A stretch of DNA of 64,000 bases from Deltaproteobacteria bacterium (GTDB lineage: Bacteria > UBA10199 > JACPAL01 > JACOUP01). Location of the stretch: positions 95,384 to 159,383 of the forward strand of contig JACOUP010000003.1 of the NCBI GenBank assembly GCA_016177765.1. The letters are read 5' to 3'. Position 1 is the stretch's first letter; each line of letters starts with the position of its first letter. Shown piece after piece: positions 4,157 through 49,400 of the stretch. The position numbers and the translations under genes are program-made. The notes under the pieces are model-generated. The model was not told where the DNA came from. It was given only the letters and a program-made list of their open reading frames with translations, and made no database searches.

Positions 4157-4196
4157 GAAATGCCGAAATGGCCAAATGGTGCCGGGTACCTACGAT

Positions 4197-22091: not shown

Positions 22092-24257
22092 TTACTTCCT
22101 GATTGCCTCTTGACGCAGAGTTTCAAGATAGAGGTCCGCCCTCTCGGGCGAAACCCTCCGGTAGTTTGCCAACGCCTTATCCTGCCATTCCTTTATTTTA
22201 GCGGCCCGTTCTTCTAGTTCCTTTGCCGGGACCCCTCTCTTGGTTTGCATCTGAATGGCGAAGGCTTGGTCATTCTGGAGGTCCGCCGCCTGTTCATAAA
22301 GAGTGGCGTCCTCATAAATCCTGACACCCCTTTCCGGATCTTTAAGATCGTTGATGGCGGTGAGGGCGGCGGCTTCGACTTTTCCGAGGCGAAGGTAGTC
22401 GGTAATCGCCCCTTCAGGATCTCCATCAGCGGATTTGAGATCGGCTAGATTTTCCGGATTGTCCCCGGAAAACCTCCTGGCAATATCTGGTTTGCCTTCT
22501 TGAAGGGCAAAGCGGAAGAGGTCTTGTTCCGCCTCCCCCATTTCCAAGAGGGCATTGACCATCCCTTCCGTATCTTCCCCGTTATCGGCAAAGAGGTGCG
22601 AGGCAAGATCTTCCAATAGGGTTGAATTATCGAAGGAATGCCCTGTCTTTTGAAAGTAGGCCTTGGCGAGGAGGTACTGATCCTTGGGCTGAAGGACGGG
22701 AACCCCTTTTTCATTGGTTGTTTGAATGCACCTTTTCATGTACTCCGGATTTCGGGAGAGAAGGACCAAGCGGATGATTTCCTCAGTATCCCCTCGGGCC
22801 TCGGCCAGGCTGATAAAGTCCGAGAAAAAATTCTGCTGTGCATTAAGGGGGATTGGTTTCCCCTCATGATAGTCGGAGAGATTGAAATAATTGTGAGGCA
22901 TAGTCTCATCTGGAGGCCAGAAGTTCATGGAACCGCCGTCCCCCTGCGGTTCAAAGAAATCGAGGCGCCCTTGGTTCAAGACCCATCCTTCCTGAGACCG
23001 TGCAAATTCTACTGCAACAGGAAAGAGGATTCTGTTACCGGTAAAGGGGAGGTAGTTCTGGCCGCCATCGACGGTTTCTCCATAAACCCCGACGGTGATC
23101 TTCCCATCGTCTCTTGTTTGGGGGAGTTGTATCTCCGAGTAAAATCGTTCGACGACGTTGGTTTCCAGGGAAAGACTCCCCCCAAATTGTTTCAAGGTGA
23201 GCTGGGTTCCCCCCGGGGTATCTGCATAAATGGAATCAAAGGTGGGGTTTTGTAGTTCTACCATAACGTTATTCCCTTCCCGCAGGCTGAATTTGAGTCT
23301 CGGCTCGATAGCGTAGTTATTTTCTCTAGCGAGGATTTCAATAGTACTTGCTTGATAATCTCTGGGCCGGATGGCACCGGGGGTCATCTCCCCAAAGGAA
23401 AAGAAGGTAGGCTTGGAGACAGTGAATATCCCGTAACTCTTGGCGATATCCTCCCCGTTGCCGGCAGGGGGCTCGCCAAAGCCGAAGCGTGAGCGGGGGG
23501 AAAAACCGAACCGGTCCGGGTCGATCAGGACAACGTCTCCATTTTCGACAAAGAGAGAATTGTCCTCTCTCTCTGCCGGTTGGATGAGAAGCCTTTGACT
23601 GGTTGTCACCACAGGGTAACCATCAGGACCGGGGATCACGCGGAAACTTTTATTGGAAACCAGGGTGAAGCTCCCCGATGAGGTCGTTAATTGAACCGTT
23701 CCCTCGGGCCTCGCCCCGTCGCGCGAAAGGGCAGCTTTTTCCACCTGGAGGGAAAATTGTTCCTCCACCAACTCACCATTTTCAAGGAGTGGTTGTTCCC
23801 CGTCACTGCGGAGTGTTCCTTGGGTGACCAGCATCGTCCCGTTATTATCCTGAAGGGTTCCTCCCTCGGTTACGCTCCAGTCGTGGGGATAGAGCCCCGG
23901 CTGGATAATCAGACCGGCCGAGGTGGTGCACGGTTTGCTGGTAACCTGATCCAGCGTCGCCCCAGCCGGAAGTAGTTCCATGGGAGGGGAGGGTTTGAGT
24001 TGGCTCAGATAACTTTGGAGCGTCCGGACCATCTCCCGCCGTTGGGGGGCGGGGAGTTCATCAAATCTTTCAAAGGTATCGCGGTTCTGGCTGACAAAAA
24101 AACCGATCCCTTTCTCTTTTTCCAGACGTCCTTCCATCTCTGCCAACTTCAACTCATCAATCTCCCCATCCGGTTCCTTCCCGAGCCCGTAGCGATCGAG
24201 CGATTCAAAGAGCCGGCGGAGTTCGGGGGAGAACTGTCTGTAAGAAATGGGGGCCAT
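22092..24257 (-). CDS. Hypothetical protein (ORFan, 721 aa, no signal peptide, helical C-terminal third)
   Basis: 2.17-kb uninterrupted ORF, 38 nt downstream of the YD-repeat lipoprotein gene on the same strand. No motif recognised. Confidence 0.7.
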   Translation of the reverse strand: MAPISYRQFSPELRRLFESLDRYGLGKEPDGEIDELKLAEMEGRLEKEKGIGFFVSQNRDTFERFDELPAPQRREMVRTLQSYLSQLKPSPPMELLPAGATLDQVTSKPCTTSAGLIIQPGLYPHDWSVTEGGTLQDNNGTMLVTQGTLRSDGEQPLLENGELVEEQFSLQVEKAALSRDGARPEGTVQLTTSSGSFTLVSNKSFRVIPGPDGYPVVTTSQRLLIQPAEREDNSLFVENGDVVLIDPDRFGFSPRSRFGFGEPPAGNGEDIAKSYGIFTVSKPTFFSFGEMTPGAIRPRDYQASTIEILARENNYAIEPRLKFSLREGNNVMVELQNPTFDSIYADTPGGTQLTLKQFGGSLSLETNVVERFYSEIQLPQTRDDGKITVGVYGETVDGGQNYLPFTGNRILFPVAVEFARSQEGWVLNQGRLDFFEPQGDGGSMNFWPPDETMPHNYFNLSDYHEGKPIPLNAQQNFFSDFISLAEARGDTEEIIRLVLLSRNPEYMKRCIQTTNEKGVPVLQPKDQYLLAKAYFQKTGHSFDNSTLLEDLASHLFADNGEDTEGMVNALLEMGEAEQDLFRFALQEGKPDIARRFSGDNPENLADLKSADGDPEGAITDYLRLGKVEAAALTAINDLKDPERGVRIYEDATLYEQAADLQNDQAFAIQMQTKRGVPAKELEERAAKIKEWQDKALANYRRVSPERADLYLETLRQEAIRK

Positions 24258-24295: not shown

Positions 24296-25372
24296 CTACA
24301 GTGAGTCATCGAGACTCAAAGGTTGCTGGATCGGGGTGTAATCCTCTTCCAAGATGGTGACCTGTGAATTGAGGTCTCCACCATGCCCCTTGTAGGTCAA
24401 CGGTTTTCCCTTGTCATCGTAGGTCCATTCTCTGGAATAGGTTACCGGTGAGGCGAGGTCTCCACTATGCCACTTGTGGGTCAACGGCCTCCCCTTGTCA
24501 TCGTAGGTCCATTCTCTGGAATAGGTTACCGGTGAGGCGAGGTCTCCACAGGTTACCGGTGAGGCGAGGTCTCCACTATGTTCCTTGTAGGTCAACTTAT
24601 TTCCCTTGTCATCGTAGGTCCATTCGCTGGAAGAGGTTAACGATGAGTTGAGGTCTCCACTATGTTCCTTGTAGGTCAACTTATTTCCCTTGTCATCGTA
24701 GGTCCATTCTCTGGAAGAGGTTACCGGTGAATTGAGACCTTTCTCATGTTCTTTATAGGTCAGGATTCCCCCTTTGTTGTTATAAAGGGATTCCAAGGAT
24801 CCGGTGACTCTGGAGGAGAGTGCCGGAACGGGTGGCCCTTGTCTGAGGGGGATTACAATTTTACCGATAGAGGTGAGGAGCCTCCTCTCCTGATCCCATG
24901 TCGTTTCAACGACCCCATTGGCATACACGGAACGTCCGTTGAACAGACCGACTTGTTGATGAAACTCTGTCTTCTTGAGGGGGAGCCAATAGTAGACCCC
25001 ATCGCAGTTAAAATCCTTGAATCCGTCGTCATTTTCCCATTTTGTGCTCCCGGGGTTTACTGTTTTATCATTATCGTTACAATCAGTCTTGTTGGCGACA
25101 TAACCGGCCGGGGGGGTTCCCTCTTTTGAATCGAGAGGGGATAAGGGGTCACCAAACCCATCCCCGTCTTTATCGGCAAAGTACTGGAAGGCCTGTTGGG
25201 TCCCGTTGCCCGGTTGTTGGGTGCCGGGGGGAGGGGTTGTTTCATCCCCCTTTTTTTCTTCTTTTTTATCCTCAGGCTTTGTCTCTTCCTTACTGCCATC
25301 ACACCCAGTCCAGTAAAGGAAGAAGCAGAGAAGGGGGAGGAGGAAAAAGAGGCTTCTTACCGGTTGTTTCAT
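24296..25372 (-). CDS. Putative lipoprotein with a MopE-like Cys/Asp metal-binding motif and about five YD-type 28-aa repeats
   Basis: Start at ATG 25372 (GGAG 8 nt upstream) gives MKQPVRSLFFLLPLLCFFLYWTGC, a signal peptide plus lipobox-like TGC. Also DKDGDGFGDP...CNDNDKTVNPG, and repeats SREWTYDDKGxxLTYKEHSGDLxSxVT. The track's longer N-terminus runs through intergenic palindromes. Confidence 0.75.
   Translation of the reverse strand: MKQPVRSLFFLLPLLCFFLYWTGCDGSKEETKPEDKKEEKKGDETTPPPGTQQPGNGTQQAFQYFADKDGDGFGDPLSPLDSKEGTPPAGYVANKTDCNDNDKTVNPGSTKWENDDGFKDFNCDGVYYWLPLKKTEFHQQVGLFNGRSVYANGVVETTWDQERRLLTSIGKIVIPLRQGPPVPALSSRVTGSLESLYNNKGGILTYKEHEKGLNSPVTSSREWTYDDKGNKLTYKEHSGDLNSSLTSSSEWTYDDKGNKLTYKEHSGDLASPVTCGDLASPVTYSREWTYDDKGRPLTHKWHSGDLASPVTYSREWTYDDKGKPLTYKGHGGDLNSQVTILEEDYTPIQQPLSLDDSL
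24353..24790 (-). repeat. 84-bp tandem repeat array (about 5 units) encoding the YD-type repeats
   Basis: The AGGTCCATTC unit recurs at 24421, 24505, 24616 and 24700 (period 84; one unit is 111 = 84+27). Confidence 0.85.
24524..24577 (-). repeat. 27-bp tandem duplication (26/27 identical) inside one repeat unit
   Basis: GGTTACCGGTGAGGCGAGGTCTCCACA / GGTTACCGGTGAGGCGAGGTCTCCACT. Encodes GDLASPVTCGDLASPVTY. Confidence 0.9.
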
Positions 25373-25401
25373 AGAGTGATCTCCTTGGTAATATAACTTA
25401 A

Positions 25402-25417
25402 AGCAAGCTTCATGCCA
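25402..25417 (-). promoter_or_regulatory. Sigma-54-type promoter TGGCAT-GAAGC-TTGCT upstream of the lipoprotein/721-aa operon
   Basis: The minus strand reads TTGGCATGAAGCTTGCTT. GG and GC have the canonical spacing and 15/16 match YTGGCACGrNNNTTGCW. The predicted TSS near 25391 leaves a ~19-nt leader containing GGAG. Confidence 0.55.
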
Positions 25418-25463
25418 AAACATCCCTGTCCTGTCACAAAAACATCTTTTTAATTTTGATAGG

Positions 25464-25507
25464 TTACACGCGTGCCTGGCACAAATGACCCTCGTGGTGC
25501 CAGGCAC
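25464..25507. repeat. Hairpin family TTAYACGCGTGCCTGGCAC-loop-GTGCCAGGCAC, copy 1
   Basis: Arms at 25472-25482 and 25497-25507 (11 bp) with a 14-nt loop. 18/19 left-flank identity with the copy at 42325. Confidence 0.8.
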
Positions 25508-25520
25508 CAAGAGATAAGAT

Positions 25521-25535
25521 TTCTCAAATTGAGAA
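25521..25535. promoter_or_regulatory. Palindrome TTCTCA-AAT-TGAGAA (candidate enhancer/UAS), ~110 bp upstream of the sigma-54 -24 element
   Basis: Perfect inverted repeat. The same half-sites occur twice at 33079-33111. Confidence 0.5.
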
Positions 25536-25570: not shown

Positions 25571-25608
25571 GGTACCGGGTACCTTTTGGCCAAAAGGTAC
25601 CCGGTACC
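25571..25608. repeat. Perfect 38-nt palindrome GGTACCGGGTACCTTTTGGCCAAAAGGTACCCGGTACC (copy 2)
   Basis: Identical to 4119-4156. Lies between the divergent lipoprotein gene and trpA. Confidence 0.9.
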
Positions 25609-25656: not shown

Positions 25657-26397
25657 ATGAAAAAGGCCCTCATCCCATTTTTTACCGCCGGGGACCCCAG
25701 TCTCACAATCACCGAAAAACTGGTGTTGATGGCAGAGGAGGCCGGTGCGACTATTGTAGAGTTGGGGGTTCCATTCTCCGACCCGATGGCCGACGGTCCG
25801 GTGATCCAGGCCGCTTCCGAAAGGGCCCTCAAAAAAGGGGTCACGCTGGAAAAGGTCTTGGCGTTGGTCCGGTCGATCCGCAAGAAAAGTTCTGTTCCCC
25901 TCCTCCTGATGGGGTACTACAACCCACTCTACCACTTTGGTCTCAGAAGGTTTGCCAAAGAGGCCAGGCGTTCAGGGGTCGATGCGATTTTGGTGGTTGA
26001 TCTCCCGCCGGAAGAATCGTTTGAATTAGATCGTGAGTTGAAAAAGGTTGGGATTGTTCTTGTCTATCTGCTGGCCCCGACCAGTTCTACGGAAAGAATC
26101 AAGATTGTCTGCCGGAAGGCGCGCGGCTTTATCTATTTTGTCTCAGTGACCGGTATTACCGGCGCCTCGTTGAAGGGGGAAGGGGCGATTCGCCGGCAGA
26201 TCCAGAAGATCAAGAGACAAAGCCATCTGCCGGTGGTGATCGGTTTCGGTATTACCCGACCCGAACAGGCAAAGAAAATGGCTCGCCTGGCGGATGGGGT
26301 GGTGGTCGGGAGCGCGTTGGTGAACCTTGTTCATCGAACACACGGTTCGGTTGCTGCGGCCCAAAAAATGGTGGCGAATTTCCGCAGGGCTGTGTAG
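25657..26397 (+). CDS. trpA: Tryptophan synthase alpha chain TrpA
   Basis: LIPFFTAGDPS..., ELGVPFSDPMADGPVIQ, GFGI... motifs; 246 aa. Confidence 0.95.
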   Translation: MKKALIPFFTAGDPSLTITEKLVLMAEEAGATIVELGVPFSDPMADGPVIQAASERALKKGVTLEKVLALVRSIRKKSSVPLLLMGYYNPLYHFGLRRFAKEARRSGVDAILVVDLPPEESFELDRELKKVGIVLVYLLAPTSSTERIKIVCRKARGFIYFVSVTGITGASLKGEGAIRRQIQKIKRQSHLPVVIGFGITRPEQAKKMARLADGVVVGSALVNLVHRTHGSVAAAQKMVANFRRAV

Positions 26398-31503: not shown

Positions 31504-33060
31504 ATGTCTGAAAACCGTTTGGTGGCTAGAAGGACAGGGACGGTCGGCTTTTTCACCCTCATTTCCCGTATCTTTGGACTCCTCCGGGACATGGCCATTG
31601 CCAATGTCTTTGGGACAAAATTGGCGGCAGACGCCTTTTTTGTCGCCTTCCGGATCCCGAACCTCTTTCGGCGGCTCTTTGCGGAAGGGGCGATGACCGT
31701 TTCCTTTGTCCCGATCTTTACGGAGTCTCTCAAAAAATCCAGGGAGGAGGCTCGTGAGACGGTCAACACCCTCTTCAGTCTGGCCGTTGTTGTCCTTTCC
31801 CTTGTTTCGATCCTGGGGATCCTATTTTCACCATGGATTGTGAAGCTGATCGCCTATGGTTTTGTCAGCGATCCGGAGAAATTCAATCTGACGGTTTATC
31901 TGAACCGGATCATGTTTCCTTATTTGGTGGTTGTCTCCCTCGCGGCGGTTGGGATGGGGATTTTAAATTCCCTCAAACATTTTGCCGCTCCCGCGGCAGG
32001 ACCGGTGCTGATGAATTTGGGGATTATTGCCGGGGCTCTCTTCTTTGTCCGGTGGTTCGACCCTCCCGTGGTGGGGCTTGCCATTGGCGTTCTTCTGGGG
32101 GGACTCCTGCAGGTAGCAATTCAGATTCCCGCCCTACGTCGCCATCAGTTTTTCCCCAAGTGGCACTGGAACCTCAAACACCCTTCCGTGAACAAGATGG
32201 CGCGGCTGATGCTCCCTTCGGCCTACGGGGCGGCCGCCTATCAGTTTAATGTGGTGATCATCACACTGCTCGCCTCTTTTCTTCCGTCCGGATCTGTCTC
32301 CTACCTTTGGTATGCCGACCGGGTGATGGAGTTTCCGGTCGGTGTCTTCGGGATCGCGATGGCCACAGCGATCCTCCCAACCCTTTCCGACTACGCCGCT
32401 GAAAAGCAAATGGGAAAATTGAAAGAGACCTTCAACTACGGCCTCCGCCTCATCTTTTTTATTACGATCCCGGCGACCTTTGGATTGTTTATTTTGTCAC
32501 ACCCGATTGTCAAAATTCTCTTTGAGCATGGTCGTTTCACCGCAGAATCGAGCCATCATACGGTGACGGCGCTCCAACTCTTTGCCCTTGGTCTTCCTTT
32601 CATTGCCGGGGTCAGAATGACCTCCAACGCCTTTTATTCCCTTCAGGATGCCCGGACTCCGGTGCGAATTGCGAACTGGGCGGTGGTGGTGAATATTATT
32701 CTTTCACTTTTATTTCTGAAACCATGGGCCCACAACGGGCTCGCCCTGGCCTTGAGCCTTTCGGCCCTTTTTAATTTTGGGATGCAACTCTACGAGTTCC
32801 GGAAAAAGGTGGGTCTGCTGGGACTAAAGAGTGTGGTCGGATCGCTCATCAAACAACTAGTGGCCTCAGTGGTGATGGCCGTTTTTCTCTGGGTTATTCT
32901 TCATTACTATCCGCCCGCATTGTCTCTCTGGAAGAGCAGTCTCTACCTCTTTTCTCTGATCATCGCCGGCATCGCCCTCTTCCTCGTTTCTTCCTGGCTC
33001 TTGAGGGCCAAGGAGTTGGGAGAGCTGATCCAGGTTTTTACCCACAAAGCCCATCCCTAA
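31504..33060 (+). CDS. murJ: Lipid II flippase MurJ (MviN)
   Basis: 518 aa, about 14 TM, with SRIFGLLRDMAIANVFG and FFVAFRIPNLFRRLFAEGA, the conserved MurJ N-terminal motifs. Confidence 0.93.
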   Translation: MSENRLVARRTGTVGFFTLISRIFGLLRDMAIANVFGTKLAADAFFVAFRIPNLFRRLFAEGAMTVSFVPIFTESLKKSREEARETVNTLFSLAVVVLSLVSILGILFSPWIVKLIAYGFVSDPEKFNLTVYLNRIMFPYLVVVSLAAVGMGILNSLKHFAAPAAGPVLMNLGIIAGALFFVRWFDPPVVGLAIGVLLGGLLQVAIQIPALRRHQFFPKWHWNLKHPSVNKMARLMLPSAYGAAAYQFNVVIITLLASFLPSGSVSYLWYADRVMEFPVGVFGIAMATAILPTLSDYAAEKQMGKLKETFNYGLRLIFFITIPATFGLFILSHPIVKILFEHGRFTAESSHHTVTALQLFALGLPFIAGVRMTSNAFYSLQDARTPVRIANWAVVVNIILSLLFLKPWAHNGLALALSLSALFNFGMQLYEFRKKVGLLGLKSVVGSLIKQLVASVVMAVFLWVILHYYPPALSLWKSSLYLFSLIIAGIALFLVSSWLLRAKELGELIQVFTHKAHP

Positions 33061-33078
33061 AGAGTGTTCTCAATTTAA

Positions 33079-33111
33079 TTCTCATTTTGAGAAATTTTCT
33101 CATTTTGAGAG
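33079..33111. promoter_or_regulatory. Two tandem palindromes TTCTCA-TTT-TGAGAA / TTCTCA-TTT-TGAGAg (18-nt phasing) plus a half-site at 33067-33072; candidate enhancer (UAS)
   Basis: Read directly. Centres lie ~147 and ~129 bp upstream of the -24 GG at 33233. Confidence 0.5.
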
Positions 33112-33199
33112 GGATTTTGGGTTCGACTGTCGCTTCAGCCGGAGGCTGATCCGTCCTTTGGCGGACACCATGTCCCTTTATTTTCAATAAGTTATAAGT

Positions 33200-33210
33200 G
33201 TACCCGGTAC
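33200..33210. repeat. GTACCCGGTAC, the 11-bp palindromic half-unit of the 38-nt palindrome
   Basis: Same 11-mer as 4146-4156 and 25598-25608. Located 22 nt upstream of the sigma-54 -24 element. Followed by TGATCC-gaa-GGATCA (33213-33227). Confidence 0.6.
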
Positions 33211-33231
33211 GGATGATCCGAAGGATCAGAT

Positions 33232-33247
33232 TGGCACCCCCCTTGCA
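33232..33247 (+). promoter_or_regulatory. Sigma-54-type promoter TGGCAC-CCCCC-TTGCA
   Basis: Perfect match to both conserved blocks with correct spacing. It is intergenic and immediately upstream of the 963-aa secreted protein gene. Caveat: the predicted TSS (~33258) leaves only 3-4 nt before ATG 33262. Confidence 0.55.
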
Positions 33248-33261
33248 TGATAATGGAGGTG

Positions 33262-36153
33262 ATGAAGCGATTTCTCCTCAGATCCCCCCTCCTTATTATA
33301 CTGGGCCTCGTGCCCCTTTATGGGGGGAGCGCCTTTTCACAGATGATCTCACCGGGGGCGAGGGTTAATTCTTCCTCTTCGTCGGCAACAAGAGTTGGTT
33401 CCTCCGGGATGAGGATCAATCAGGCGGCGCCACCGGTGGCAACGTCCAATTCCCGACCGTCGGTTACTGTCAGTGGTGCTACCACCGCCAGTGGGGCTAC
33501 CACCTTGAAGCTCTTGGGCAACACCAACAGAACCAACACCGATAAAGTCCAGAGTTCACAGGGTGAGATAAGGATTAATACGGTGACCTCGTCAACTCCC
33601 GCAACAGGCATGACCATTCGGGATATCCCCGCGGCCAATATTGTTACCACCACGCCTCCTCCCACACCCTCGGCGATAGTGATTCCCGGCGGGGCGACGA
33701 TGGCGGCACCGGGTTCTGTTTTGGTTCCTCCCACGGTCACGATTCCGGCCGGCGGGGGTGCCACAACGGTTATAATCCCCCCATCGGTGACATCAACAAT
33801 CCAGAATATCCCCGCGGCAAATATTGTGACCACCGCACCTCCCGCATCCGGAGTGGCGGCCGGTGCCATCAACGTCAATGGATCAATCGTAGACCGGATT
33901 ACCGAGGGTGTGGGCAACATCTTTAATACGGTGGTTGACACCGTTGCCGATTTCCTGACCTCCGGCGACAACCGGATTTCCGACATCGTGACCACAGTCA
34001 ATACGGGTGGAACAACGACCACTCCTCCCCCCGCTTCAACCGGAGGGGCTATCTACGAAGGGGGAGGCAGAAATTTTCTGATCGAGACGGGCGGGACGAC
34101 GATGGCCGGTGGTACAGGGGGAGGGACGACAACGACAGGGGGCGGCTCCGGGGGTGTTTCCACAACCACTCCCCCACCGGTATGTACCGGGAGCCCGGGC
34201 GACCCTCCGGCGTGCCATGCTCAAGGGGCCGATTCCCAGCCAACCTCACAACCGACCTGTGATACCGCCTATCCGGAGACCTGTGCCCCCGCCAGTCAAC
34301 CGACCTCTATGCCGGTCGGTTCCTTCTGCGTTGGCGGCGCTCCGCCTGTTTTTCAGGAAACCTTGGTGACTTCGGGGCAGGGGATCGATCAAGTGGCGGT
34401 TCACGAAGGGGTTTGGGTGGATGGGATCCCTTCACAGGGTTCAATTTCGTGGTTTAGGATCAATCCGGAAGGACTGTTCCAGGCCTACCGGGGCATGACC
34501 GCCACGAGCGGGCCTGTCGGTTCCACGCAAACGGAGGCGGATATCCATCTTTTCACCCTCGGGGATTTTTTACAAAACGATCCGGAGATCGACCTTCTGA
34601 CGATGACCCCGTATTATTTGTTCAGCGCCTTTTCACCGGAGTACAATTTTTCCCCGCAGAATTTTCCATCCGTGACCAGTCATCCTGCTTTTATGACCGG
34701 TTTGGAGATAGGGGACGCGGGAGAGAGTGAATATGCGGCGGCCTGGGAATCCGGGACTGTCTTAGTCGGCAGGGTGCCTCACCCTGGGGGGTCTGAACAA
34801 CCAAAGACGATGACCCTTCTGTCCCAGAATAACGACAAGATTTACGATTTTGCAAAAATGTCGGTTTCAGGGGCCGGAGGGGATTTCCTCATAACCCTCA
34901 CAAGGAATCTGCAAAATCAGAAGGTACAACTCATTTATGTTGGCACAGGCCCTCATTTTTTTCAGGGTGAGCCGGTTTCCCGCTTTTTGGAGATCGATAC
35001 CGTTGGCACCCCTCGGCGGATGGCTGTTACGGGGAGCCGGGTTGTGGTTGTGACCAATGACAATACCACCCGGAAGAGTTATCTCTACACGGTCCCGATC
35101 AGTTATTCCCCCGCAGAGGATCGCCTTTTGAAAGGGGAGGTCAGCTCTCTGGAGATCCCCGGCGGTGTCGGTTTTGTAGCGGTGGCGGACTTGAACCGGG
35201 ACGGGCGGGACGATCTGGTTTTGTACGTCGTGGATCCGACCACTTCGGCTTCGAACAGCACAGGGTCGATCCAGATCTTTTATCCGGATTCAAGCGGTGT
35301 GTTCCGATCGGATCAGGTTCTTTCCCATCCTGTTCCCGCCGGCAAGATTGTGCGGGATCTGGATGCAGGGCCGGTCGGTTCCGGGATCGGCATCGGTTAT
35401 CTGACAGGTGGGGCAACGGCCGTTGCTTCCCGGTTTAGCGGCAGTGGAGGAGATTACCGGGTTGAGTCGACCGATACGGTCGCTGTGCCGCCAACCCTTG
35501 AGGTCTCTTTCCTGCAGGTTTCCTGTCCAGGTGGTTCAGCAGGCGGAACGGTGCCAGGTCCTTATGGCGAGACAACCCTCCCGCCACCCCCTCCAGCCTC
35601 TGTATTGCCACCTCCTCTGAAGGATCAGGTCATTACCCTGGAACCGATCAAAAAAAGCTGTATCCAGGGGGAAGAGGTCACCATCGCTATTCCGGTCGAT
35701 AAGGTCGACAATCCTGAGCTCAAGGCGCTGGCAATCAAGAAGGATGCCGTTATCGATTCCACACTCACCCAGATGAGCGGCCCTTATCTGGGAGAGATTG
35801 ACAGGACACGCGAGTGGAAACTCGAGGCGGTTCCCCAGGAGGGAAGGGTTCTGGCGGCCAAGGTTCGAAGCCAGGATTTCAAATCAGCCCTCTCCGCCTT
35901 CGGGACGATGGGAGAAGATGGGGCCCTGGTTGTCAAAACCAAGTCTTCCGAGGTGACCCCCTCCGATCCCTTTGAGGTGAAGATCACCTGTGGTCTTGTG
36001 CCGATGAATGCCAAAGAACCCACTTATGTCGCTGATCTTGTCTATACGGCCAAATTGCCGGACGGGACAAGCCTCATCCAGCCGATTCAACTGGACGCCG
36101 AATTGATGAAACTGGGGGGCGGCGGCGGCTGTAGCCTTATTCCAGAACAGTAA
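33262..36153 (+). CDS. Large secreted protein (963 aa): signal peptide, Thr/Gly/Pro-rich low-complexity region, Cys-rich linker, FG-GAP/VCBS-like segment
   Basis: Start moved to ATG 33262 (GGAGGTG upstream), giving MKRFLLRSPLLIILGLVPLYGGSAFSQ. Repeated IPAANIVTT(T/A)PPP. ADLNRDGRDDLVLYV is FG-GAP-like. C-terminus is ...LGGGGGCSLIPEQ*. Confidence 0.75.
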   Translation: MKRFLLRSPLLIILGLVPLYGGSAFSQMISPGARVNSSSSSATRVGSSGMRINQAAPPVATSNSRPSVTVSGATTASGATTLKLLGNTNRTNTDKVQSSQGEIRINTVTSSTPATGMTIRDIPAANIVTTTPPPTPSAIVIPGGATMAAPGSVLVPPTVTIPAGGGATTVIIPPSVTSTIQNIPAANIVTTAPPASGVAAGAINVNGSIVDRITEGVGNIFNTVVDTVADFLTSGDNRISDIVTTVNTGGTTTTPPPASTGGAIYEGGGRNFLIETGGTTMAGGTGGGTTTTGGGSGGVSTTTPPPVCTGSPGDPPACHAQGADSQPTSQPTCDTAYPETCAPASQPTSMPVGSFCVGGAPPVFQETLVTSGQGIDQVAVHEGVWVDGIPSQGSISWFRINPEGLFQAYRGMTATSGPVGSTQTEADIHLFTLGDFLQNDPEIDLLTMTPYYLFSAFSPEYNFSPQNFPSVTSHPAFMTGLEIGDAGESEYAAAWESGTVLVGRVPHPGGSEQPKTMTLLSQNNDKIYDFAKMSVSGAGGDFLITLTRNLQNQKVQLIYVGTGPHFFQGEPVSRFLEIDTVGTPRRMAVTGSRVVVVTNDNTTRKSYLYTVPISYSPAEDRLLKGEVSSLEIPGGVGFVAVADLNRDGRDDLVLYVVDPTTSASNSTGSIQIFYPDSSGVFRSDQVLSHPVPAGKIVRDLDAGPVGSGIGIGYLTGGATAVASRFSGSGGDYRVESTDTVAVPPTLEVSFLQVSCPGGSAGGTVPGPYGETTLPPPPPASVLPPPLKDQVITLEPIKKSCIQGEEVTIAIPVDKVDNPELKALAIKKDAVIDSTLTQMSGPYLGEIDRTREWKLEAVPQEGRVLAAKVRSQDFKSALSAFGTMGEDGALVVKTKSSEVTPSDPFEVKITCGLVPMNAKEPTYVADLVYTAKLPDGTSLIQPIQLDAELMKLGGGGGCSLIPEQ

Positions 36154-41231: not shown

Positions 41232-42323
41232 CTAAAGAAGAAAAAGAATCGGTCCGATCTTTTACCGAACGGACCTCCAAGCTTCGAGGTCTTCTTTGAC
41301 ATCGCTTCAAAGAAAAAACGTCTTGAGGAAATAGAGCAAACAGCCGCAGCGGCAGGATTCTGGAGCGACAACAAGAAAGCAGAGGCGGTTCTTAAAGAGA
41401 AAAAACTCTTGGGTGATCTTGTTTCCCGGTTCCAAAAACTGGAGAGTGAGATCGAAGAGACGACCCTGCTCCTGGAACTCGGTGCCGAAGGGGCCGATGA
41501 AGATTTGAAAGGGGAGGGGAAGACAAGGCTTGCCGGGATTGAAGCAACCCTCGCCCAATTTGAATTTGAAAGAATGCTCTCCGGAGGGCATGACCACAAC
41601 AGTGCCATCCTTTCGATCAATGCTGGTGCCGGTGGGACGGAGTCCTGCGATTGGGCCGAGATGCTTCTCCGGATGTACCGGATGTGGGCCGACAAACAGG
41701 GGTACAAGAACGAGGTGGTTGACTTCACCCTTGGAGATCAGGCCGGTTTCAAATCGGCAACGGTGACGGTTTCTGGTGATTATGCCTACGGCTATTTAAG
41801 GGCGGAGATCGGCGTCCATCGTCTTGTCCGGATTTCCCCTTTTGACGCCAACAAACGGCGTCATACCTCTTTTGCCTCTGTCTTTGTTTATCCGGATATT
41901 GAAGACGAGATCCAGATTGAGGTCAAGGATTCGGATCTCCGTGTGGATACCTTCCGTTCCAGTGGGGCCGGGGGGCAGAAGGTCAACAAGACCGATTCTG
42001 CGGTTCGTCTGACCCATCTCCCAACGGGGATTGTCGTCGCCTGTCAGAATGAACGGTCCCAACACCAGAACCGGGCGCTCGCCTTAAAGATCCTCAAGGC
42101 CCGGTTGTATGAAGAGGAGATGAAGAAAAAGGACGCGGAAAAGGCCAAGATTGAATCCTCCAAAAAGGATATCGAGTGGGGTTCCCAGATCCGTTCGTAC
42201 GTCCTGCACCCGTACAAGATGGTGAAAGACCATCGGACCGGCGTAGAGGTCGGGGATGCCCAACGGGTCCTGGACGGAGACCTGAATCTGTTCATCCGGC
42301 AATTTCTTCTTCATAATCAATAA
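41228..42323 (+). CDS. prfB: Peptide chain release factor 2 PrfB, requiring a programmed +1 frameshift at 41294-41300
   Basis: Frame 0 reads MTKEEKESVRSFTERTSKLRGLL then TGA (41297-41299). The +1 frame continues DIASKKKRLEEIEQ...FWSD... into the 41409 ORF. SPF (RISPFD) and GGQ (SGAGGQKVN) motifs are present. Confidence 0.93.
41286..41300 (+). promoter_or_regulatory. RF2 autoregulatory +1 frameshift site: SD-like GAGG, then CTT CTT TGA C
   Basis: Same CUU-UGA-C slippery/stop context as the E. coli prfB site, with an internal SD-like element 4 nt upstream. Confidence 0.9.
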
Positions 42324-42324
42324 A

Positions 42325-42372
42325 TTATACGCGTGCCTGGCACCAGACCCCCCCTTTGGTGCCAGGCACGCG
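42325..42372. repeat. Hairpin family TTAYACGCGTGCCTGGCAC-loop-GTGCCAGGCAC(GCG), copy 2, directly after the prfB stop
   Basis: 14-bp stem (42330-42343 / 42359-42372) with a 15-nt loop and no U-tract. The track's ORF start at 42333 runs through it. Confidence 0.8.
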
Positions 42373-42428
42373 GGGAACCTTCGGGATTAAGGCAACTTTT
42401 TGCCCTTTCCGCCGAGAACCGCCCCACG

Positions 42429-45400
42429 ATGCCGGGAGGGGTGACTATCAGCCGCGAGTCTCTTTTGGGCAGGCTCTATTCGGAGCTTTCCGTCCCCGGC
42501 GACCCTTCCCTGATTGCCCTTGTCGATACCTTGGTCCGTCTGACCGGTTCGGATCAGTTTGTTCAGCACCATCCGTCGGATCGGTTCGAGATCACTATGC
42601 CGGATCATTCCCACCGGCTTCTCCGCTATGAGGAACTCCTGCAAGGGCTTGTTGAAAGGTATTACGGTCACAGTCATCCCCCCGAATACCGCGAGAGACT
42701 CTACAAGACCCTTCTTTCCGCGACCAGCCTCGCCGAGTCGGCAATCGCGGGAGGGGGTGAGATCCTTTATTGTGAAGAGCCCCCTTCCTGGGAGCCGTTC
42801 GTCTTTCCCCGTGAGGCGGTGACGATTGTGTTGGTGCCGTCGCCCTCTTCGGAAGAGGGGAGCCGGCGAGCCGCAGGATCTCCTTTTTCAATCTGGGGAC
42901 ATCTCCCTCGCCGGGAGGAGTTGCATGGGGAGGCAGTCCTGGTGGCCGTTCACCAGCAGGGTCCTTCGACCGTGGAATTGGTCGTCAAGACGATCGCCCC
43001 TATCACACATCGGTTTGTTGATGATCCGTCAACGGAGCTCCGCCTCCCGGTTTATGCCGATTCTATAAGACTGACTCGAAGGGGAGGCGATTTTATCCTG
43101 CAAGGCTTTTCCTATCCCCGGAGGGAAGAGATTGAGATCCCTCTTTCGGGAGACTGGGTAGGGGATGATTCCCTCATCCGTAATCTCGGACGGATCCCAC
43201 CCGGAAGCGACCGGTTTCAAAGACTCCTTTATTTATCGGCCGCCGCCAATGCCCTTTTTCTGGAAGGGACTGCCGATGCCCCATCCTTTGAATTTGCCCC
43301 CGGAGAGTTGTTTCTCTCAAGCCGTTTCAGGGGAAAGGTTGTCTCTCTCTTCCCGCTCCTCTCTCGCTCCGAGCCATCCCTTTTGGGGATGATAGAAATA
43401 GGGGCGACGGGGCTCCATACCTTTAGTGTCGCCGTTCCAGGGCGTCTCCGCCTTGTCCCTTCCCGGTCAGGTGATTTACCTGGGGGTGGTTCACCCAAGG
43501 GTGATTCAGGGGTTGTGGGGGAAAGCTGGGAGATTGACTATGAAGCGATCACCCCGTGGGAAGGGGTCACCTTCACCCGTTCCCTTCAACTCCATCCGTC
43601 CCACCCTGTTGTGGCGCGATGGATGAGCCGAGTGACCGGAGGGAGTTGGGGAGCGGCCTCTTATCCCATCTCGGAAGAACAACTCAAGGAACTGGTCGAG
43701 GCGCAGAGACTTTCGGCGGAGGAGATTGAAGTCCAACGACAGGCCAGGGACTGGGTTGATTCCAACTTGGCCGACAAAATAAGGGAGACCGGCTCTCTCC
43801 ACAGGGCTGTTTTGGCGATTATCTATGTGGATCTCGAAGAAGGGAAAAAAGGACCGGGTGGAACAGGAGGGGGTGCCGGAGGAGGGACCGACCCTGAGGC
43901 ATCGCCTCCTCCCCCCTGGATGCTTTCTGGTTTAAGAGATTCCCGACCAGGTGCCTTTCTGGTTGAGGGTGATTCACCCTTGGGTGCCCCACCCAAGGAT
44001 GGTTTTGTTGGAGGAGTGACAACTTCCCCAGGGGAGTCTGGGTCATCCGGTGGGCCTCTTCTGCCATTAGTCGGTCGTCTCATCACCCCGGGTGAGGAGT
44101 TTACCGTTCCCTCCGGGCTGGTCTATCGGTTTTCTCCTGTTGATCAAGGGGCCCTCTGGTTGTTGCCGCCGGACCCCGATGGGGTCGGATTGGAAGGGTA
44201 CCGGCGCGACGAGATCGCCGAAATTCTCTCATTGTTGGAGGGGGAAGAGCCGGTTGTTGCTGTTGCCGGTTGGCGAGGGACCGGCAAGTCAAGGATAGCC
44301 AGAGAGACCCTTCCTGCGGCCTTGAGGGGGAAAGGGAAAAAAGTAGCCACACTGAAGCTTTCGGATGAGGGGGTGGAGGGAGGGGAACTGGAACAGGTTT
44401 CAGCCTTGATGGCCGGGAATCCTGACATTCTGATTCTGGATGAGGCGGCGATCAGACCGGAGGAGAAGGTGTGGCACCGGTTGATCCCTCTGGCATTCCT
44501 CCTTCACCGTTATCTGGAGGGAGGGGGAAGGATTGTCCTTTTTGGGGGGGGCGACTTTCTGACGCCGGAGGAACAGGCTGTTTGGATGCGGTGGACCGGA
44601 TGGACACCCCCCTTGGTCCGACTCGACCTGAAACCGTTCAACCGAAGACAGGCCCACGAGTTCCTGATCCCTCCCGATTCCAGGCTAAGCCCTGCCGATC
44701 AACAGGCCTACGTCCGGCTCGCCTCGCAGTGGGTCCCGCCGTATCCCGGACTTTTGAGGTACGTCCGGTTGGGTCCCGATATCGATCATCTGGAAGATCT
44801 CCACTTGTCACTCTTGTTCCGGTTTCATCCGCTCGATCCCTGGGAGAGGGAGGGAGTCCAAGTTCTGGCATGGCCTCATGGGTCACCCAGTTTTTCAGAC
44901 CTCTCCGTGACCCCTGTCGGTTATCGTCGCGACGACTCCGAGCATCGGGTCCGGCTCCTCTTTCTGATGACCGGCCGGCTCCTTGAATTATTGCGTGAAG
45001 AGACCCGCAGGTACCCTTCCGACGATGGGATCGGTCTGACGCTCGCGGTCGCGGCGACAGAATACAATATCCTGGGGCAAATGCTTGCGGGCGCTCCAGA
45101 CAAGGGTGGTTCACCCAACCTTGGTTTTGAACCGATGTCGGCCCCGGAGGCCCGGCTGGAACTCCGGGGGTATCTGAGCCCTCTCAGGGGGACCAGGGCC
45201 TCCGAGACGGTGGTGCTGGTTTTGGGAACAGAGATCCGTCTCCTCCAGAAAATTTTTAGAGAGACGGAGGAATGTTCCGAAGCTGAACAGATCGTCCAAG
45301 AGAGGATAGGGATCTTGAGGCAACGGTTACAGGAGACACTGGCATCGATTCAAAAAATTGACCAGACTGCCGAGGTTCCTGCCTCTCAAGAGGTTGCCGA

Positions 45401-46415
45401 TCTTGATGGGACTGTGGGTCCGATGGTGAATGCGACGGCCCTTATTGTCCACCGTGACTTCTTGCGGCGACTCCGCCGGGAGCAAAAGGAGACCGCCGGG
45501 CAGTTCAATCCTCTTTTGGACGAAGCGGTTTTTTATACCGTGGGGATGATTGATCAGAATGTCACCCCGCCGTTCCTAAAAAAGGATCTGACCCCCCAAG
45601 AGCGCCGCGCTTATGTTTATTTAAACCGTCGCTATCTGGAGTACCTCGATGCCAGAATGGCCGAGGGGCCTGCCGACCCATTTGACCGATTTTTCCCGAT
45701 TGCCCTTCGCGGCAAAATCAGACGTCTGGTGGATGACCTTTCGATCCTCACAGCGATCGATCAGGAGCCTCTCCCTGAGGGAGTCCTCCACCTGCCCGAT
45801 TACGGGGAAAGCCTAAAACTCTTGGTCTCTCTCTTGCCGCGGCATATCGAGGCGGTTGCTCAACATAGAGAATCCCCGTGGGCCTTGGCGATTGCCCAGG
45901 ATGCCGGCCTTGGCCGGGATGTCTCCTCCTACCTGATTGTGCAAAGGGATCACTTGGCCCGTGCCCGGCGCCGGCTGGCCGCTCTGAACAGGCCTCCTTC
46001 CGGTGGGGGAAAGGGGGGCGGTAGTCTACCGGGAGGCAATCCGGCGGGGGGGATCGTTCCGCCAGTGGATCCCGCTATTGTGCGAGGGATAGCTGAAGCG
46101 ATGGGGCCGGAGTATTTAACAAGGGTTACCTCTTATCCCTCTCCCAATTGGGGAGAGGGTGCCCGAAGGGCGGGTGAGGGGGAGCAACATTTCCCCGGAG
46201 AGGATTCTTTCTCCGTCGCCGTTAGGTATCTTGCCGGAACCCTTCGAGATGACCCGGCGGCCGTGATGGCACTCGACCGAGCAGTCTTGATGATGAGAGA
46301 AACACCAACACCCCTCAGACCGGAAGGAATGGTTCGTTTTGAAGAGAGAAAAGCGGTGGAGGCTGGCCGTGCCAGGGGTGGAGAATTGCTCTGGCGCAGT
46401 AACGCCGCGCGTTAG
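42429..46415 (+). CDS. Giant cytoplasmic P-loop NTPase (STAND/Orc-like ATPase core flanked by about 600-aa unknown regions)
   Basis: About 4-kb uninterrupted ORF. Start tentatively ATG 42429 (downstream of the hairpin, no clear SD). Walker A VAGWRGTGKS (44268-44291), Walker B ILILDEAA (44427-44444), then LDLKPFNRRQAHEFL (hxLxPhxxxEaxxhh motif). No signal peptide. Confidence 0.7.
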   Translation: MPGGVTISRESLLGRLYSELSVPGDPSLIALVDTLVRLTGSDQFVQHHPSDRFEITMPDHSHRLLRYEELLQGLVERYYGHSHPPEYRERLYKTLLSATSLAESAIAGGGEILYCEEPPSWEPFVFPREAVTIVLVPSPSSEEGSRRAAGSPFSIWGHLPRREELHGEAVLVAVHQQGPSTVELVVKTIAPITHRFVDDPSTELRLPVYADSIRLTRRGGDFILQGFSYPRREEIEIPLSGDWVGDDSLIRNLGRIPPGSDRFQRLLYLSAAANALFLEGTADAPSFEFAPGELFLSSRFRGKVVSLFPLLSRSEPSLLGMIEIGATGLHTFSVAVPGRLRLVPSRSGDLPGGGSPKGDSGVVGESWEIDYEAITPWEGVTFTRSLQLHPSHPVVARWMSRVTGGSWGAASYPISEEQLKELVEAQRLSAEEIEVQRQARDWVDSNLADKIRETGSLHRAVLAIIYVDLEEGKKGPGGTGGGAGGGTDPEASPPPPWMLSGLRDSRPGAFLVEGDSPLGAPPKDGFVGGVTTSPGESGSSGGPLLPLVGRLITPGEEFTVPSGLVYRFSPVDQGALWLLPPDPDGVGLEGYRRDEIAEILSLLEGEEPVVAVAGWRGTGKSRIARETLPAALRGKGKKVATLKLSDEGVEGGELEQVSALMAGNPDILILDEAAIRPEEKVWHRLIPLAFLLHRYLEGGGRIVLFGGGDFLTPEEQAVWMRWTGWTPPLVRLDLKPFNRRQAHEFLIPPDSRLSPADQQAYVRLASQWVPPYPGLLRYVRLGPDIDHLEDLHLSLLFRFHPLDPWEREGVQVLAWPHGSPSFSDLSVTPVGYRRDDSEHRVRLLFLMTGRLLELLREETRRYPSDDGIGLTLAVAATEYNILGQMLAGAPDKGGSPNLGFEPMSAPEARLELRGYLSPLRGTRASETVVLVLGTEIRLLQKIFRETEECSEAEQIVQERIGILRQRLQETLASIQKIDQTAEVPASQEVADLDGTVGPMVNATALIVHRDFLRRLRREQKETAGQFNPLLDEAVFYTVGMIDQNVTPPFLKKDLTPQERRAYVYLNRRYLEYLDARMAEGPADPFDRFFPIALRGKIRRLVDDLSILTAIDQEPLPEGVLHLPDYGESLKLLVSLLPRHIEAVAQHRESPWALAIAQDAGLGRDVSSYLIVQRDHLARARRRLAALNRPPSGGGKGGGSLPGGNPAGGIVPPVDPAIVRGIAEAMGPEYLTRVTSYPSPNWGEGARRAGEGEQHFPGEDSFSVAVRYLAGTLRDDPAAVMALDRAVLMMRETPTPLRPEGMVRFEERKAVEAGRARGGELLWRSNAAR
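43470..43512. repeat. GGGTG(A/G)TTCACCCAA motif cluster (degenerate copy + full copy + half copy)
   Basis: GGTGATTTACC (43470-80), GGGTGGTTCACCCAAGG (43484-43500), GTGATTCAGGGG (43501-12). Encodes GDLPGGGSPKGDSGV. Confidence 0.7.
43967..43998. repeat. GGGTGATTCACCC-TTGGGTG-CCCCACCCAAGG motif copy
   Basis: Contains the nested palindromes GGTGATTCACC and CACCCTTGGGTG. Encodes GDSPLGAPPKD. Confidence 0.7.
45102..45124. repeat. AAGGGTGGTTCACCCAACCTTGG motif copy
   Basis: Encodes KGGSPNLG, in the same frame as the other giant-ORF copies. Confidence 0.7.
46137..46180. repeat. CCCTCTCC / GGAGAGGG / GGGTGAGG palindromic element, copy 3, in frame inside the giant NTPase gene
   Basis: CCCTCTCCC-aattg-GGGAGAGGG, TG, GCCC-gaa-GGGC, GGGTGAGG. 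Same layout as 17514-17558. Encodes YPSPNWGEGARRAGEG. Confidence 0.8.
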
Positions 46416-46488: not shown

Positions 46489-49400
46489 ATGATGAGAAGG
46501 CAGAGGCTTCTTTCAATTGTCGGGCTTTTCTTCAGTATCCCTTTATTTTTCTCCTGTGCCTTTGATCAAGGGGATCCCTTTCAATTTGGGGCCGGTGGCG
46601 CCGCCAGTCCTGGGGGGGACGAGAGGAACATTAATAATGCCTGTCAGTCGGATGCCGATTGTGCCGGGGCCGTTTGTGATTTGATCTCCGGTCTCTGTTC
46701 TGTCTCTCTTCCCCCGGTAACACCAAAGTTTGGTTGTGGGGCGGATGCCGATTGCCCGGGGGGGCAGGTCTGTGACCTGGGAACTTTCCAGTGCCGCGCT
46801 CCAAAGACCACCTGTCCGGGGGTCTCCTGCCGGGAGGATCAATCGCTGGATACTGCGACCTGTCGTTGCATCAACACCTGCCCTGTTGATTTTAATGCAA
46901 CGCTTGTCCTCAAGGGGGATTCTCCGGTGGAGGACAAATACGACATCCCGGCAGACTGTCGGCTTTACGGGCTCGACCTGAATGAGCCTTTCGACGGGCC
47001 TTACCCTCCCACCCCCCAGGAACACCGGGATCTCTATTGTTGCAACAATCCTGATCCTGACCTGAGCATGAGTTACCCTTATGGTTCCCGGGATTGCGAC
47101 GAAACACCGAGCCCGGCGAAGAAGATCAATACGATCCGCTATTTTCCGGACAAGCCGATGAAACTGAAGTTTGATCTTTCGGATCCGGCCCGTTGCCGCG
47201 TTTTTCTGGAGGCGAGGGATTTTCCGACCTATAGGATCGCTAACACCGCCATGGATGCCGCTTTAAAGATTGATGCCGGACAGGGGGAGGGGGATTTTGA
47301 GGGGCTGACAGCCCAAGGGAGTTGTCGTGAGGAAGGGGGAGTTATTCATATTGAGGAGTTCGAGGGACTCCACTTCCGGATCCGTTTCTATGATCGCCTC
47401 ACGGATACCAGTTTTCCGATACTTGATCCCGAAGCGCCGTTTACCGGGGGGACAATTTTCCCCCCCCAGGTGGTTCCCCCTTTTGAGGACGACCCGGGAA
47501 CCCCCATTCAGGATCAGGAGGGGCTCAGCCTGACGACCGGATCGGTGACGGTCCCGCCGGGGACGCCTCCTCCGGTGAGATTCAGCGATGTCGGGCCCAA
47601 GACGACAACCGGTTCTCCTCTTCAAAATGGTCATCTGAAACTGGTTACCGGTGTCCCGCTTTCCAATGAGGCCAGTCCCCCTTTGGGTGGGAAGCTCTCT
47701 GTCGCCCTTGCCGGGGCGGCCCTCGCGGCGGATATTGAGGGAGAGGTTACTCATCCGGCGACCGATGAACCGGTAATGACTCTGGAGGGGATCAAAAATA
47801 ATTGTGAGGTTCTTCCCTCCGGCCCCGATCTCGCCATTTTTGCAAAACATAGTTGGTCTGCGGGGGAGACGACAACGGCCGGGGAAGAGGGGATTTCTCT
47901 CGCCGGAAACCCCAGTCAAGGTTTTTCAGGAACGGTGACCTTCCGACAGAGTCCGTTTATCAGGCGGACTAACGAAGAGGCAGTGAATCAGGCCTATGCC
48001 AATTCTGAGGTGCGTCGCCGCTTTGAATCCGAGGAAACCATCCTCATCACCAACGAGGCGGATCATACGCCGCTGGCGCTGGACCCGACAATAACGCCGG
48101 CAGATGGCGCCTTTCAACTGGCGGGTGAGGGGACAACGCCGTCACTGGAGGTGGGGGGACTCCTGCCACTGGTCCTCTCCTTCCGGCCGGTTGAGGGGGC
48201 GCCGGGATGCACGACAGAGGGGGTCTGTCAGGCGACCCTCACGCTGGCGGCCAATCGGTTGACACTTGTCCTGCGGGCCACCGCGAGCGTCCGGAGCGGA
48301 CGACTCTCCATCTCGGAGGTCCAGAAAGGGGCGTCTTATAACGATGACAGTTACGGGTCCAATCTCGGCAGAGTCCTGTCGGCACCGGCCCCCGTCAATG
48401 AAAACAGTTATTTTGGCCTCTATCCGGACGAGACGACCCTGCAGGGGACCTGCCGGAGCAAGGTCTACCGTGTTTCCAATACAGGGGTCCTCAATATCGG
48501 GTCGGTCGGTCTGCCGATAATGGAGGCGACCGGGTATTTTACGAGGGGACAGATCCGTCAGGGAGAGGTTTTTAGGACGGCACCCCCCATTTCAGGGGGC
48601 AGTTTACCGGCCCGGTCAATCACCCCTGACGGAAAAACCGATATTTTCTTTTACCTCCGGTTCTGCCCGACGACCCTTCCCAACCTGAATCCGATCAACT
48701 CCCAGTATGGGGTCAGTTCCAACGCCGGTTCATTTTCATTCAATGTTGAGGGGAAGCCGGAGAAAAAGGCGGATGCGATCCCGCAGATTTATATCAGTGA
48801 CTTCGAGGCCTATTCCGGGGCCGATTGTACCGATAGCCGGAGCGGAATCCCAAAAACAGCCGACCTTGTGGCCCCTGATGGAAAATGCCTCTATGCGGTT
48901 CGTGAGGTGATCGATCCGGTCACTTCTAAAATCAGTGGAGAATTCAGCCTTCGTTCCAACAGGGTGACAAGGGATGTTTATGTTGTGAACAGGAAGGCCA
49001 AGAATGGCGCCGACCGGCTTCGTGTGAATCAGATTATCTTTGGTGGCGCGCACGACCAGTTTTCTTTCACTCCCGGAACGGCCCTCCCCTTTGATGTCAG
49101 TCACTGTCCCGATGCTGGCAATGGGGGGACTCGTTGTCCCATTGGGGCCTCTTGTGATGAGACGCCGACAACAGGGTGGTGCCGCAAGATCGGGACGATC
49201 ACCTTTGGGTCCGATCCGGCCGGTCCCTTTGGGATTGTCAGCCATGATTTCAAATTGGTCACAAAGACGGTCCGGGCCTCGGGAGAGGCCGATCTCCCGG
49301 AGACTGAAATGGCCTTTAAAGGGGCGAATGGGGCACCGAGCGGTTTCAAGACATTCCATGTCGGTCGCCTTTTTGCCGGTTTTCCCAACAAACTGGCGGG

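Follow-up and report, generated by a model that had tools for sequence, protein, structure and literature searches.

A predicted sigma-54 promoter with upstream activator palindromes ahead of lineage-specific secreted-protein genes in an uncultured deltaproteobacterial lineage

In a 64-kb stretch of DNA from Deltaproteobacteria bacterium (contig JACOUP010000003.1; the whole stretch analysed is called the window), the spacer between murJ and the open reading frame (ORF) of a 963-aa secreted protein carries a -24/-12 element of the sigma-54 type preceded by two inverted repeats. We consider it probable that this spacer is an activator-dependent sigma-54 promoter with upstream activator sites. 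The gene murJ (31504-33060; Pfam MurJ, E = 3e-132) is followed by a 201-bp spacer and then by the 963-aa ORF. The element TGGCAC-N5-TTGCA lies between the murJ stop at 33060 and the ORF start at 33262, on the same strand as the ORF, with a spacing from GG to GC of exactly 10 nt, matching the pattern TGGCAC-N5-TTGCW. A first-pass annotation had reported this element with canonical spacing in the spacer, and it was confirmed in the sequence. The exact pattern TGGCAC-N5-TTGCA occurs only once in the window, and a single one-mismatch copy is found on the minus strand at 25417..25402. By a weighted -24/-12 score these two sites stand far above the rest of the window, where the other sites are weak and intragenic, and both strong sites point at ORF starts.

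The inverted repeats accompany both sites. Two copies of TTCTCATTTTGAGA(A/G) are present at 33079-33111, 18 nt apart, with an additional half-site at 33067, so that the tandem arrangement, the phasing and the enhancer-type position given by the first-pass annotation are all found in the spacer. Palindromes with at most one mismatch number three in the 64 kb, two at the murJ spacer (locus 1) and one at 25521-25535 (second locus), all near the strong -24/-12 sites. Their centres are about -172 and -154 from the predicted start at locus 1 and -137 at the second locus, compared to -107 and -126 in two loci from other genomes (L003 and L011, see below), all within about 70-200 bp. The proposed recurrence of promoter and palindrome near 25.4-25.6 kb also held, on the minus strand and upstream of a 358-aa ORF. 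A composite search (palindrome, 95-125 nt, TGGCAY-N5-TTGC) yielded 2 matches in the window versus 0.00 in 100 dinucleotide-preserving shuffles; the pairing of TTCTCA-N3-TGAGAA with -24/-12, which the annotation had put forward as a check, is thus carried by both window loci and by none of the shuffles. These results support the prediction that -24/-12 element and palindromes together form a single conserved module of sigma-54 promoter and upstream activator sequence (UAS). As predicted from sequence, the module is common to at least two loci of lineage-specific exported proteins. It is an ordinary type of switch, enhancer-dependent sigma-54 promoters being already known and this instance a predicted one.

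Comparison with other genomes revealed conservation of the module. The sole orthologous locus was found in a metagenome-assembled genome (MAG) labelled Deltaproteobacteria bacterium (GCA_030649435.1; L003), with the synteny leuS-holA-rpsT-murJ-homologue. The true ORF of the homologue has 1342-1345 aa and is 49% identical to the window protein. L003 carries TTATCAAATTGATAA, TTCTCATTTTGAGAA and TGGCAT-CTTGA-TTGCA; its second palindrome is degenerate, and its distal palindrome overlaps the murJ stop codon. In the alignment of the window with L003, the -24 and -12 blocks are conserved, as is the sequence from TTGCA through codon 7, while 4 of the 5 spacer bases differ; that is, conserved blocks are separated by an unconstrained spacer in the orthologous loci. 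The DNA between UAS and promoter in L003 is otherwise dissimilar to that in the window and about 65-67 bp shorter. The locus L011, a non-syntenic contig of a groundwater MAG, contains TTCTCATTTTGAGAA, TTTCAAACGGTTA, TGGCACCCCCCTTGCA (a 16-mer identical to the window promoter) and GTGATGAA ahead of a secreted protein of more than 1027 aa. Because this protein has no similarity to the window proteins, we regard L011 as an independent instance and not an orthologue. In the three-way alignment of window, L003 and L011, TGGCA, TTGCA and GTGATGAA are invariant. In addition, an IHF-like sequence, TTTCAANNNNTTA, with one mismatch to the IHF consensus WATCAANNNNTTR, is located 37-50 nt upstream of TGGCA in the window, L003 (-49) and L011 (-37), and locus 1 has its single copy in the window. 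In more distant relatives, whose LeuS is 66-68% identical, murJ is followed by convergent genes, and the ORFan, the promoter and the palindrome are absent.

Table 1. Features of the murJ spacer (locus 1) and of the second locus, in window coordinates
Feature	Position	Strand	Remarks
Isolated TTCTCA half-site	33067-33072	+	12 nt before UAS-1
UAS-1, TTCTCATTTTGAGAA	33079-33093	.	Perfect 6-3-6 palindrome; predicted dimer site of a bacterial enhancer-binding protein (bEBP); centre ~-172 from predicted start
UAS-2, TTCTCATTTTGAGAG	33097-33111	.	Centre ~-154; 18 nt after UAS-1, start to start
Terminator-like hairpin GGACAccaTGTCC, then CTTTATTTTC	33163-33185	+	Weak; ~0.9 such matches in shuffles too
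IHF-like site TTTCAATAAGTTA	33182-33194	+	One mismatch to WATCAANNNNTTR; 50 nt before TGGCAC; predicted DNA bend in UAS-promoter gap
GTACCCGGTAC	33200-33210	.	Copy of GTRCCNGGYAC family
Palindrome TGATCCgaaGGATCA (TGATCC-gaa-GGATCA)	33215-33229	.	Abuts -24 element
Predicted sigma-54 -24/-12 promoter TGGCAC-CCCCC-TTGCA	33232-33247	+	TGGCAC 33232-33237, CCCCC 33238-33242, TTGCA 33243-33247
Predicted transcription start	33257-33260	+	11-14 nt after -12 C, canonical sigma-54 geometry; 33259 is G of invariant GTGATGAA
963-aa secreted-protein ORF	33262-36153	+	Signal peptide from ATG 33262
Second-locus UAS TTCTCAAATTGAGAA	25521-25535	.	Centre ~-137 from predicted minus-strand start
Predicted second-locus promoter TGGCAT-GAAGC-TTGCT (TGGCATGAAGCTTGCT)	25417..25402	-	One mismatch to pattern
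358-aa putative lipoprotein ORF	24296-25372	-	YD-like repeats; second-locus target
721-aa ORF	22092-24257	-	Second-locus target, after 358-aa ORF

The palindrome resembles an enhancer known from Vibrio. The UAS of SypG in V. fischeri (the 'syp enhancer') is given as TTCTCANNNTGMDWN (Ray et al. 2013, as quoted in PMC10162802), and TTCTCATTTTGAGAA, TTCTCATTTTGAGAG and TTCTCAAATTGAGAA all match it at every position specified in that quotation. Similar to the syp promoters, the window loci combine a 6-3-6 inverted repeat about 100-170 bp upstream of a -24/-12 element with surface or extracellular targets. The two systems differ in the host, Vibrio versus an uncultured deltaproteobacterium-like organism, and in the targets, polysaccharide genes versus lineage-specific secreted proteins; the targets here have no Pfam or NCBIfam family, and no glycosyltransferase or export genes as in a syp-like polysaccharide locus were found among them. 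The window palindrome is also perfect and tandem, and its predicted activator is at most a putative SypG homologue. A related site, the LuxO UAS at qrr promoters (TTGCAWWWTGCAA; PMC10162802), likewise is a 3-nt-spaced inverted repeat for a response regulator of the NtrC family, but its half-site is TTGCA instead of TTCTCA. SypG and LuxO sites overlap in V. fischeri (PMC10162802). The arrangement at locus 1 also has consensus -24/-12 blocks, tandem upstream dimer sites and an IHF-like site in the gap in common with NtrC-class promoters that loop with IHF, such as glnAp2, nifH and the orp promoters of Desulfovibrio vulgaris controlled by OrpR and IHF (PMC3897727, PMC8359166), whereas the start codon at locus 1 lies only 16 nt after the -12 C, leaving essentially no 5' leader. 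Among the sigma-54 targets of Desulfovibrio vulgaris, those of the cell exterior form the largest class, and UASs are found about 100 nt from the promoters (PMC4641369), which makes cell-exterior targets plausible here as well.

A scan of one genome per species, covering 185,579 species, for TTCTCANNNTGAGA, 74-104 nt and TGGCAYNNNNNTTGC (palindrome and TGGCAY-N5-TTGC) returned at least 120 stretches with both palindrome and promoter. The chance expectation, a rough estimate made without a computed control, is about 17 for random sequence and about 30-50 when genuine sigma-54 promoters and A+T-rich spacers are considered. The matches listed concentrate in groups that use sigma-54, and in 30 of these 121 the 8-kb locus includes a bEBP gene with the GAFTGA motif. 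In many cases the palindrome comes shortly after the end of this gene, examples among the matches listed being Bacteroides kdp operons, several Clostridia, Neobacillus and Sunxiuqinia. The IHF-like WWTCAANNNNTTR occurs in the UAS-promoter gap of 16 of the 121 matches listed, versus 2.3 ± 1.5 in shuffles. Three Vibrio matches among those listed precede a GT4 glycosyltransferase gene, which is expected of syp-like loci and makes them candidates only. Since the motif adjoins unrelated bEBP genes in Bacteroides, Clostridia and Bacillaceae, it appears to be a widespread bEBP site that is not diagnostic of SypG.

In Bacteroides and relatives (L005, L010, L013, L017, L062, L081, L101 and L105), KdpA-like genes (MNTEI.G...) were observed about 260 nt downstream of motif and promoter, and in such kdp loci a bEBP gene of response-regulator size ends just upstream of the palindrome. 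As these kdp-type loci share it, the same enhancer motif would serve differing bEBP systems across phyla.

The predicted transcription start at locus 1 is very close to the start codon. The -12 C is at 33246 and the A of the signal-peptide ATG (MKRFLL...) at 33262; L003 shares this spacing of 16 nt, and L011 has 15 nt. A sigma-54 start usually falls 12-13 nt after the -12 C, which predicts 33258-33259 for locus 1. The first-pass annotation had raised the near-leaderless geometry as a caveat, and it proved to be real, conserved in L003 and L011, and no annotation artefact. The first 21 coding nucleotides are identical between window and L003 despite about 50% protein identity, which hints at a nucleotide-level constraint around the start codon. 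In textbook cases of sigma-54 promoters, the leader is tens of nucleotides long and includes a ribosome-binding site. Locus 1 has no leader of usual length with such a site; at the second locus, the predicted start near 25391 leaves a 19-nt leader with AAGGAG before the ATG at 25372. We tentatively propose that large secreted proteins are made here from sigma-54-dependent leaderless mRNAs, whose transcripts would start 5'-GUGAUG without a ribosome-binding site. Equally tentative is the proposal of a leaderless cassette, in which a SypG-type UAS, an IHF-like site, TGGCAY-N5-TTGCA and GTGATGAA would follow one another, with the canonical sigma-54 start on the G of GTGATGAA. To our knowledge, no example of a sigma-54-driven leaderless mRNA has been described, and a limited literature search found nothing specific on leaderless sigma-54 transcripts.

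A signal-peptide ATG 15 nt after the -12 C, together with the UAS and sigma-54 arrangement, was observed at L011 3835-3985 (the groundwater 'Deltaproteobacteria' MAG) and at L014 (match 1667-1782, minus strand; a Verrucomicrobia MAG), and both are candidates for further near-leaderless sigma-54 transcripts. L127, the sole match of a metagenome scan with this UAS, was rejected as another example, as its ATGAA is not a real start.

Several observations weigh against a sigma-54 promoter at this position. Pfam scans of about 40 window ORFs found no rpoN gene in the window, and no bEBP gene was found in the window, L003 or L011. LeuS of the host is 79% identical to that of the L003 MAG, 68% to those of further MAGs and about 63% to those of Geobacteraceae, placing the host in a deep uncultured lineage, and sigma-54 is assumed in it only because of this affinity with Geobacteraceae-like relatives. 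The conservation evidence consists of one orthologue and one analogous locus. The predicted leader of 0-4 nt is atypical for sigma-54, being seen in about 3 of the 121 comparable promoters among the matches listed (L004, on the same contig as L003, L011 and L014). A perfect GGAGGT at 33255-33260, 1 nt from the ATG, would be sensible only on a longer transcript. Finally, two sequences resemble sigma-70 elements. The -10-like GATAAT at 33249-33254 is placed as is usual for leaderless sigma-70 transcripts, its end being 7 nt ahead of the A of the ATG, and TTGGCA-17-TATATT (10 of 12 matches; 25390-25418, minus strand) overlaps the -24/-12 element of the second locus.

These two sequences would fit sigma-70-type transcription of a classical leaderless mRNA, with the palindromes acting as ordinary repressor or activator sites and the -24/-12 match being coincidental or vestigial. 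L003 likewise has two sigma-70-like matches (9 of 12) upstream. We consider this unlikely, however. A sigma-70 promoter scan found none at locus 1, where TTGGCA is only 12 nt from GATAAT, so that the latter has no -35 partner. GATAAT itself is not conserved, being GGTAAT in L003, without the key A at position 2, and having no equivalent in L011. A sigma-70 promoter at locus 1 was therefore rejected. The selective conservation of the -24 and -12 blocks over their spacer also speaks against it, and so does the linkage of the palindrome to -24/-12 elements and bEBP genes across phyla among the matches listed.

Alternatively, sigma-54 holoenzyme might bind non-productively, its stable closed complex occluding or modulating a longer transcript from murJ or an upstream promoter that carries GGAGGT. 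Non-productive or intragenic sigma-54 sites have been reported in enterobacteria. With a start at 33259, the perfect GGAGGT right before the ATG would be mostly missing from the sigma-54 transcript, whose predicted leader is too short for Shine-Dalgarno initiation. But GGAGGT is too close to the ATG for a normal ribosome-binding site, as their spacing is 1 nt, and murJ is separated from the promoter by a terminator-like hairpin. Moreover, the UAS palindromes are conserved and, like the IHF-like site, lie at activator distances, an arrangement that fits activation only. This reading has in our view a rather low probability.

A third reading, in which the TTCTCA palindromes have nothing to do with the -24/-12 match and act as weak terminator hairpins of murJ, draws on their beginning 19 nt after the murJ stop and on an AU-rich RNA hairpin (-19.9 kcal/mol, z = -2.1) with GGGAUUUUGGG behind it, but it is highly improbable and was rejected, as the stems are A/T-rich without a run of G-C pairs and are not called by a terminator scan, which looks for a G+C-rich stem and a T run, the second-locus palindrome lies between divergent genes with nothing to terminate, the distal palindrome of L003 overlaps the murJ stop, and copies of the palindrome precede -24/-12 elements in many phyla.

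The preferred reading of locus 1, a promoter activated through sigma-54, leads to the following proposed mechanism. The sigma-54 RNA polymerase would bind TGGCAC-N5-TTGCA as a closed complex, and an NtrC-class enhancer-binding protein with predicted SypG-like DNA specificity would occupy the two TTCTCA-N3-TGAGA palindromes about 150-170 bp upstream. The intervening DNA would loop, probably aided by an IHF-like bend at TTTCAATAAGTTA, and ATP hydrolysis by the activator would open the promoter. Transcription would start at about 33258-33259, on the G of the conserved GTGATGAA, so that the mRNA of the 963-aa protein would be leaderless or have a leader of 3-4 nt. The minus-strand operon at 25372-22092 is probably under the same activator via its own palindrome and -24/-12 element. 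The small sigma-54 regulon suggested by the first-pass annotation would accordingly comprise two loci in 64 kb. While the sequence elements, their co-occurrence and their conservation are observed directly, we infer from them that sigma-54 and a bEBP bind, that the DNA loops, where transcription starts and how the mRNA is translated.

At the second locus, dual control of the lipoprotein operon by sigma-70 and sigma-54 is possible. No homologue was found for the 721-aa protein in the search for sequences with which to footprint the second locus phylogenetically. This region separates two tryptophan genes: trpB (18175-19347) and trpA (25657-26397) are about 6.3 kb apart, with ispG, an AbiEii-type toxin pair and the two minus-strand ORFans between them. 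In the relative L124 trpB and trpA are adjacent, and L126 has a different 944-aa minus-strand gene there.

The spacer of locus 1 contains further elements. The first-pass annotation had named three ingredients recurring at 25.4-25.6 kb; promoter and palindrome do recur, but GTACCCGGTAC is a dispersed REP-like (repetitive extragenic palindromic) element and no ingredient of the module. Its family, GTRCCNGGYAC, has 10 copies in the window versus 0.07 expected, at 4120-4189 (between convergent genes), 25472-25507, 25572-25607, 33200-33210 and 42333-42369 (just 3' of prfB), including sites without a promoter. The copies are mostly paired, 25-26 bp apart, forming perfect 36-38-nt hairpins such as GGTACCGGGTACCTTTTGGCCAAAAGGTACCCGGTACC; the family is intergenic, multicopy, often paired and gene-independent. 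L003 has none, although the promoter module is kept there. Given these dispersed and partly promoterless copies and their absence from L003, GTACCCGGTAC was rejected as a part of the module. It lies within the extra stretch of about 67 bp that the window has compared to L003, with the direct repeats GGCTGATCCG and GGATGATCCG on either side of that stretch. Short-read assemblies of several SRR121134xx samples break at 33146-33149, the left edge of this stretch, where the Logan contigs L001 and L002 end and L128 and L130 start. The break points to heterogeneity in the population or to a small element inserted between UAS and promoter.

The palindrome TGATCC-gaa-GGATCA is present next to the -24 element as had been annotated, but no role in the module could be shown for it. 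The equivalent position in L003 reads TTGATCAA, and TGATCCgaaGGATCA is possibly the site of a second regulator. The hairpin at 33163-33185 with its T-run is a better murJ terminator candidate than the TTCTCA palindromes, and its insulating the promoter from murJ read-through is possible. It also lies within the about 67 bp absent from L003.

The 963-aa protein has no Pfam or NCBIfam family, with 1 homologue among 5.8 billion proteins and 0 relatives in JGI metagenomes. One region of it is rich in Thr, Ser, Gly and Pro, an FG-GAP-like repeat scores below threshold, and the C-terminal tail is GCSLIPEQ. This tail is common to the window protein (36120-36153) and its orthologue (L003 9330-9365), as a G-rich stretch followed by GC[ST]LIPE[QN] and the stop, without a transmembrane segment. 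It may be an unrecognised sorting or processing signal.

Other features were observed downstream. CTTTGAC at 41294-41300 is located upstream of the RF2 ORF (41409-42323), whose PCRF match starts only at profile position 37, which agrees with prfB having its usual programmed +1 frameshift. For a 1360-aa ORF (42333-46415), the GTG listed as start falls inside the REP-like hairpin right after prfB, and translation probably begins further downstream. Neither this ORF nor a 1371-aa ORF (46489-50604) has a confident Pfam family, with a sub-threshold AAA_16 match in the 1360-aa ORF only, and a 1687-aa ORF (50767-55830) has PKD, cadherin-like and beta-propeller domains. The sigma-54 module is absent from the 1360-aa, 1371-aa and 1687-aa ORFs.

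With these results, an enhancer motif described for SypG of Vibrio, TTCTCA-N3-TGAGA, gains a range of many phyla: together with -24/-12 promoters and neighbouring bEBP genes it turned up in Bacteroides, Clostridia, Bacillaceae, Nitrospirota and others. That locus 1 lacks a leader, and that this lack is conserved, is the only point that could interest specialists beyond the annotation; if the mRNA is indeed leaderless, enhancer-dependent transcription would be coupled to a leaderless (70S-type) initiation of translation. For the organism, the predicted module would, if true, offer a way into the regulation of secreted proteins that are lineage-specific and otherwise escape annotation in an uncultured bacterium; one signal-responsive activator would co-induce them.

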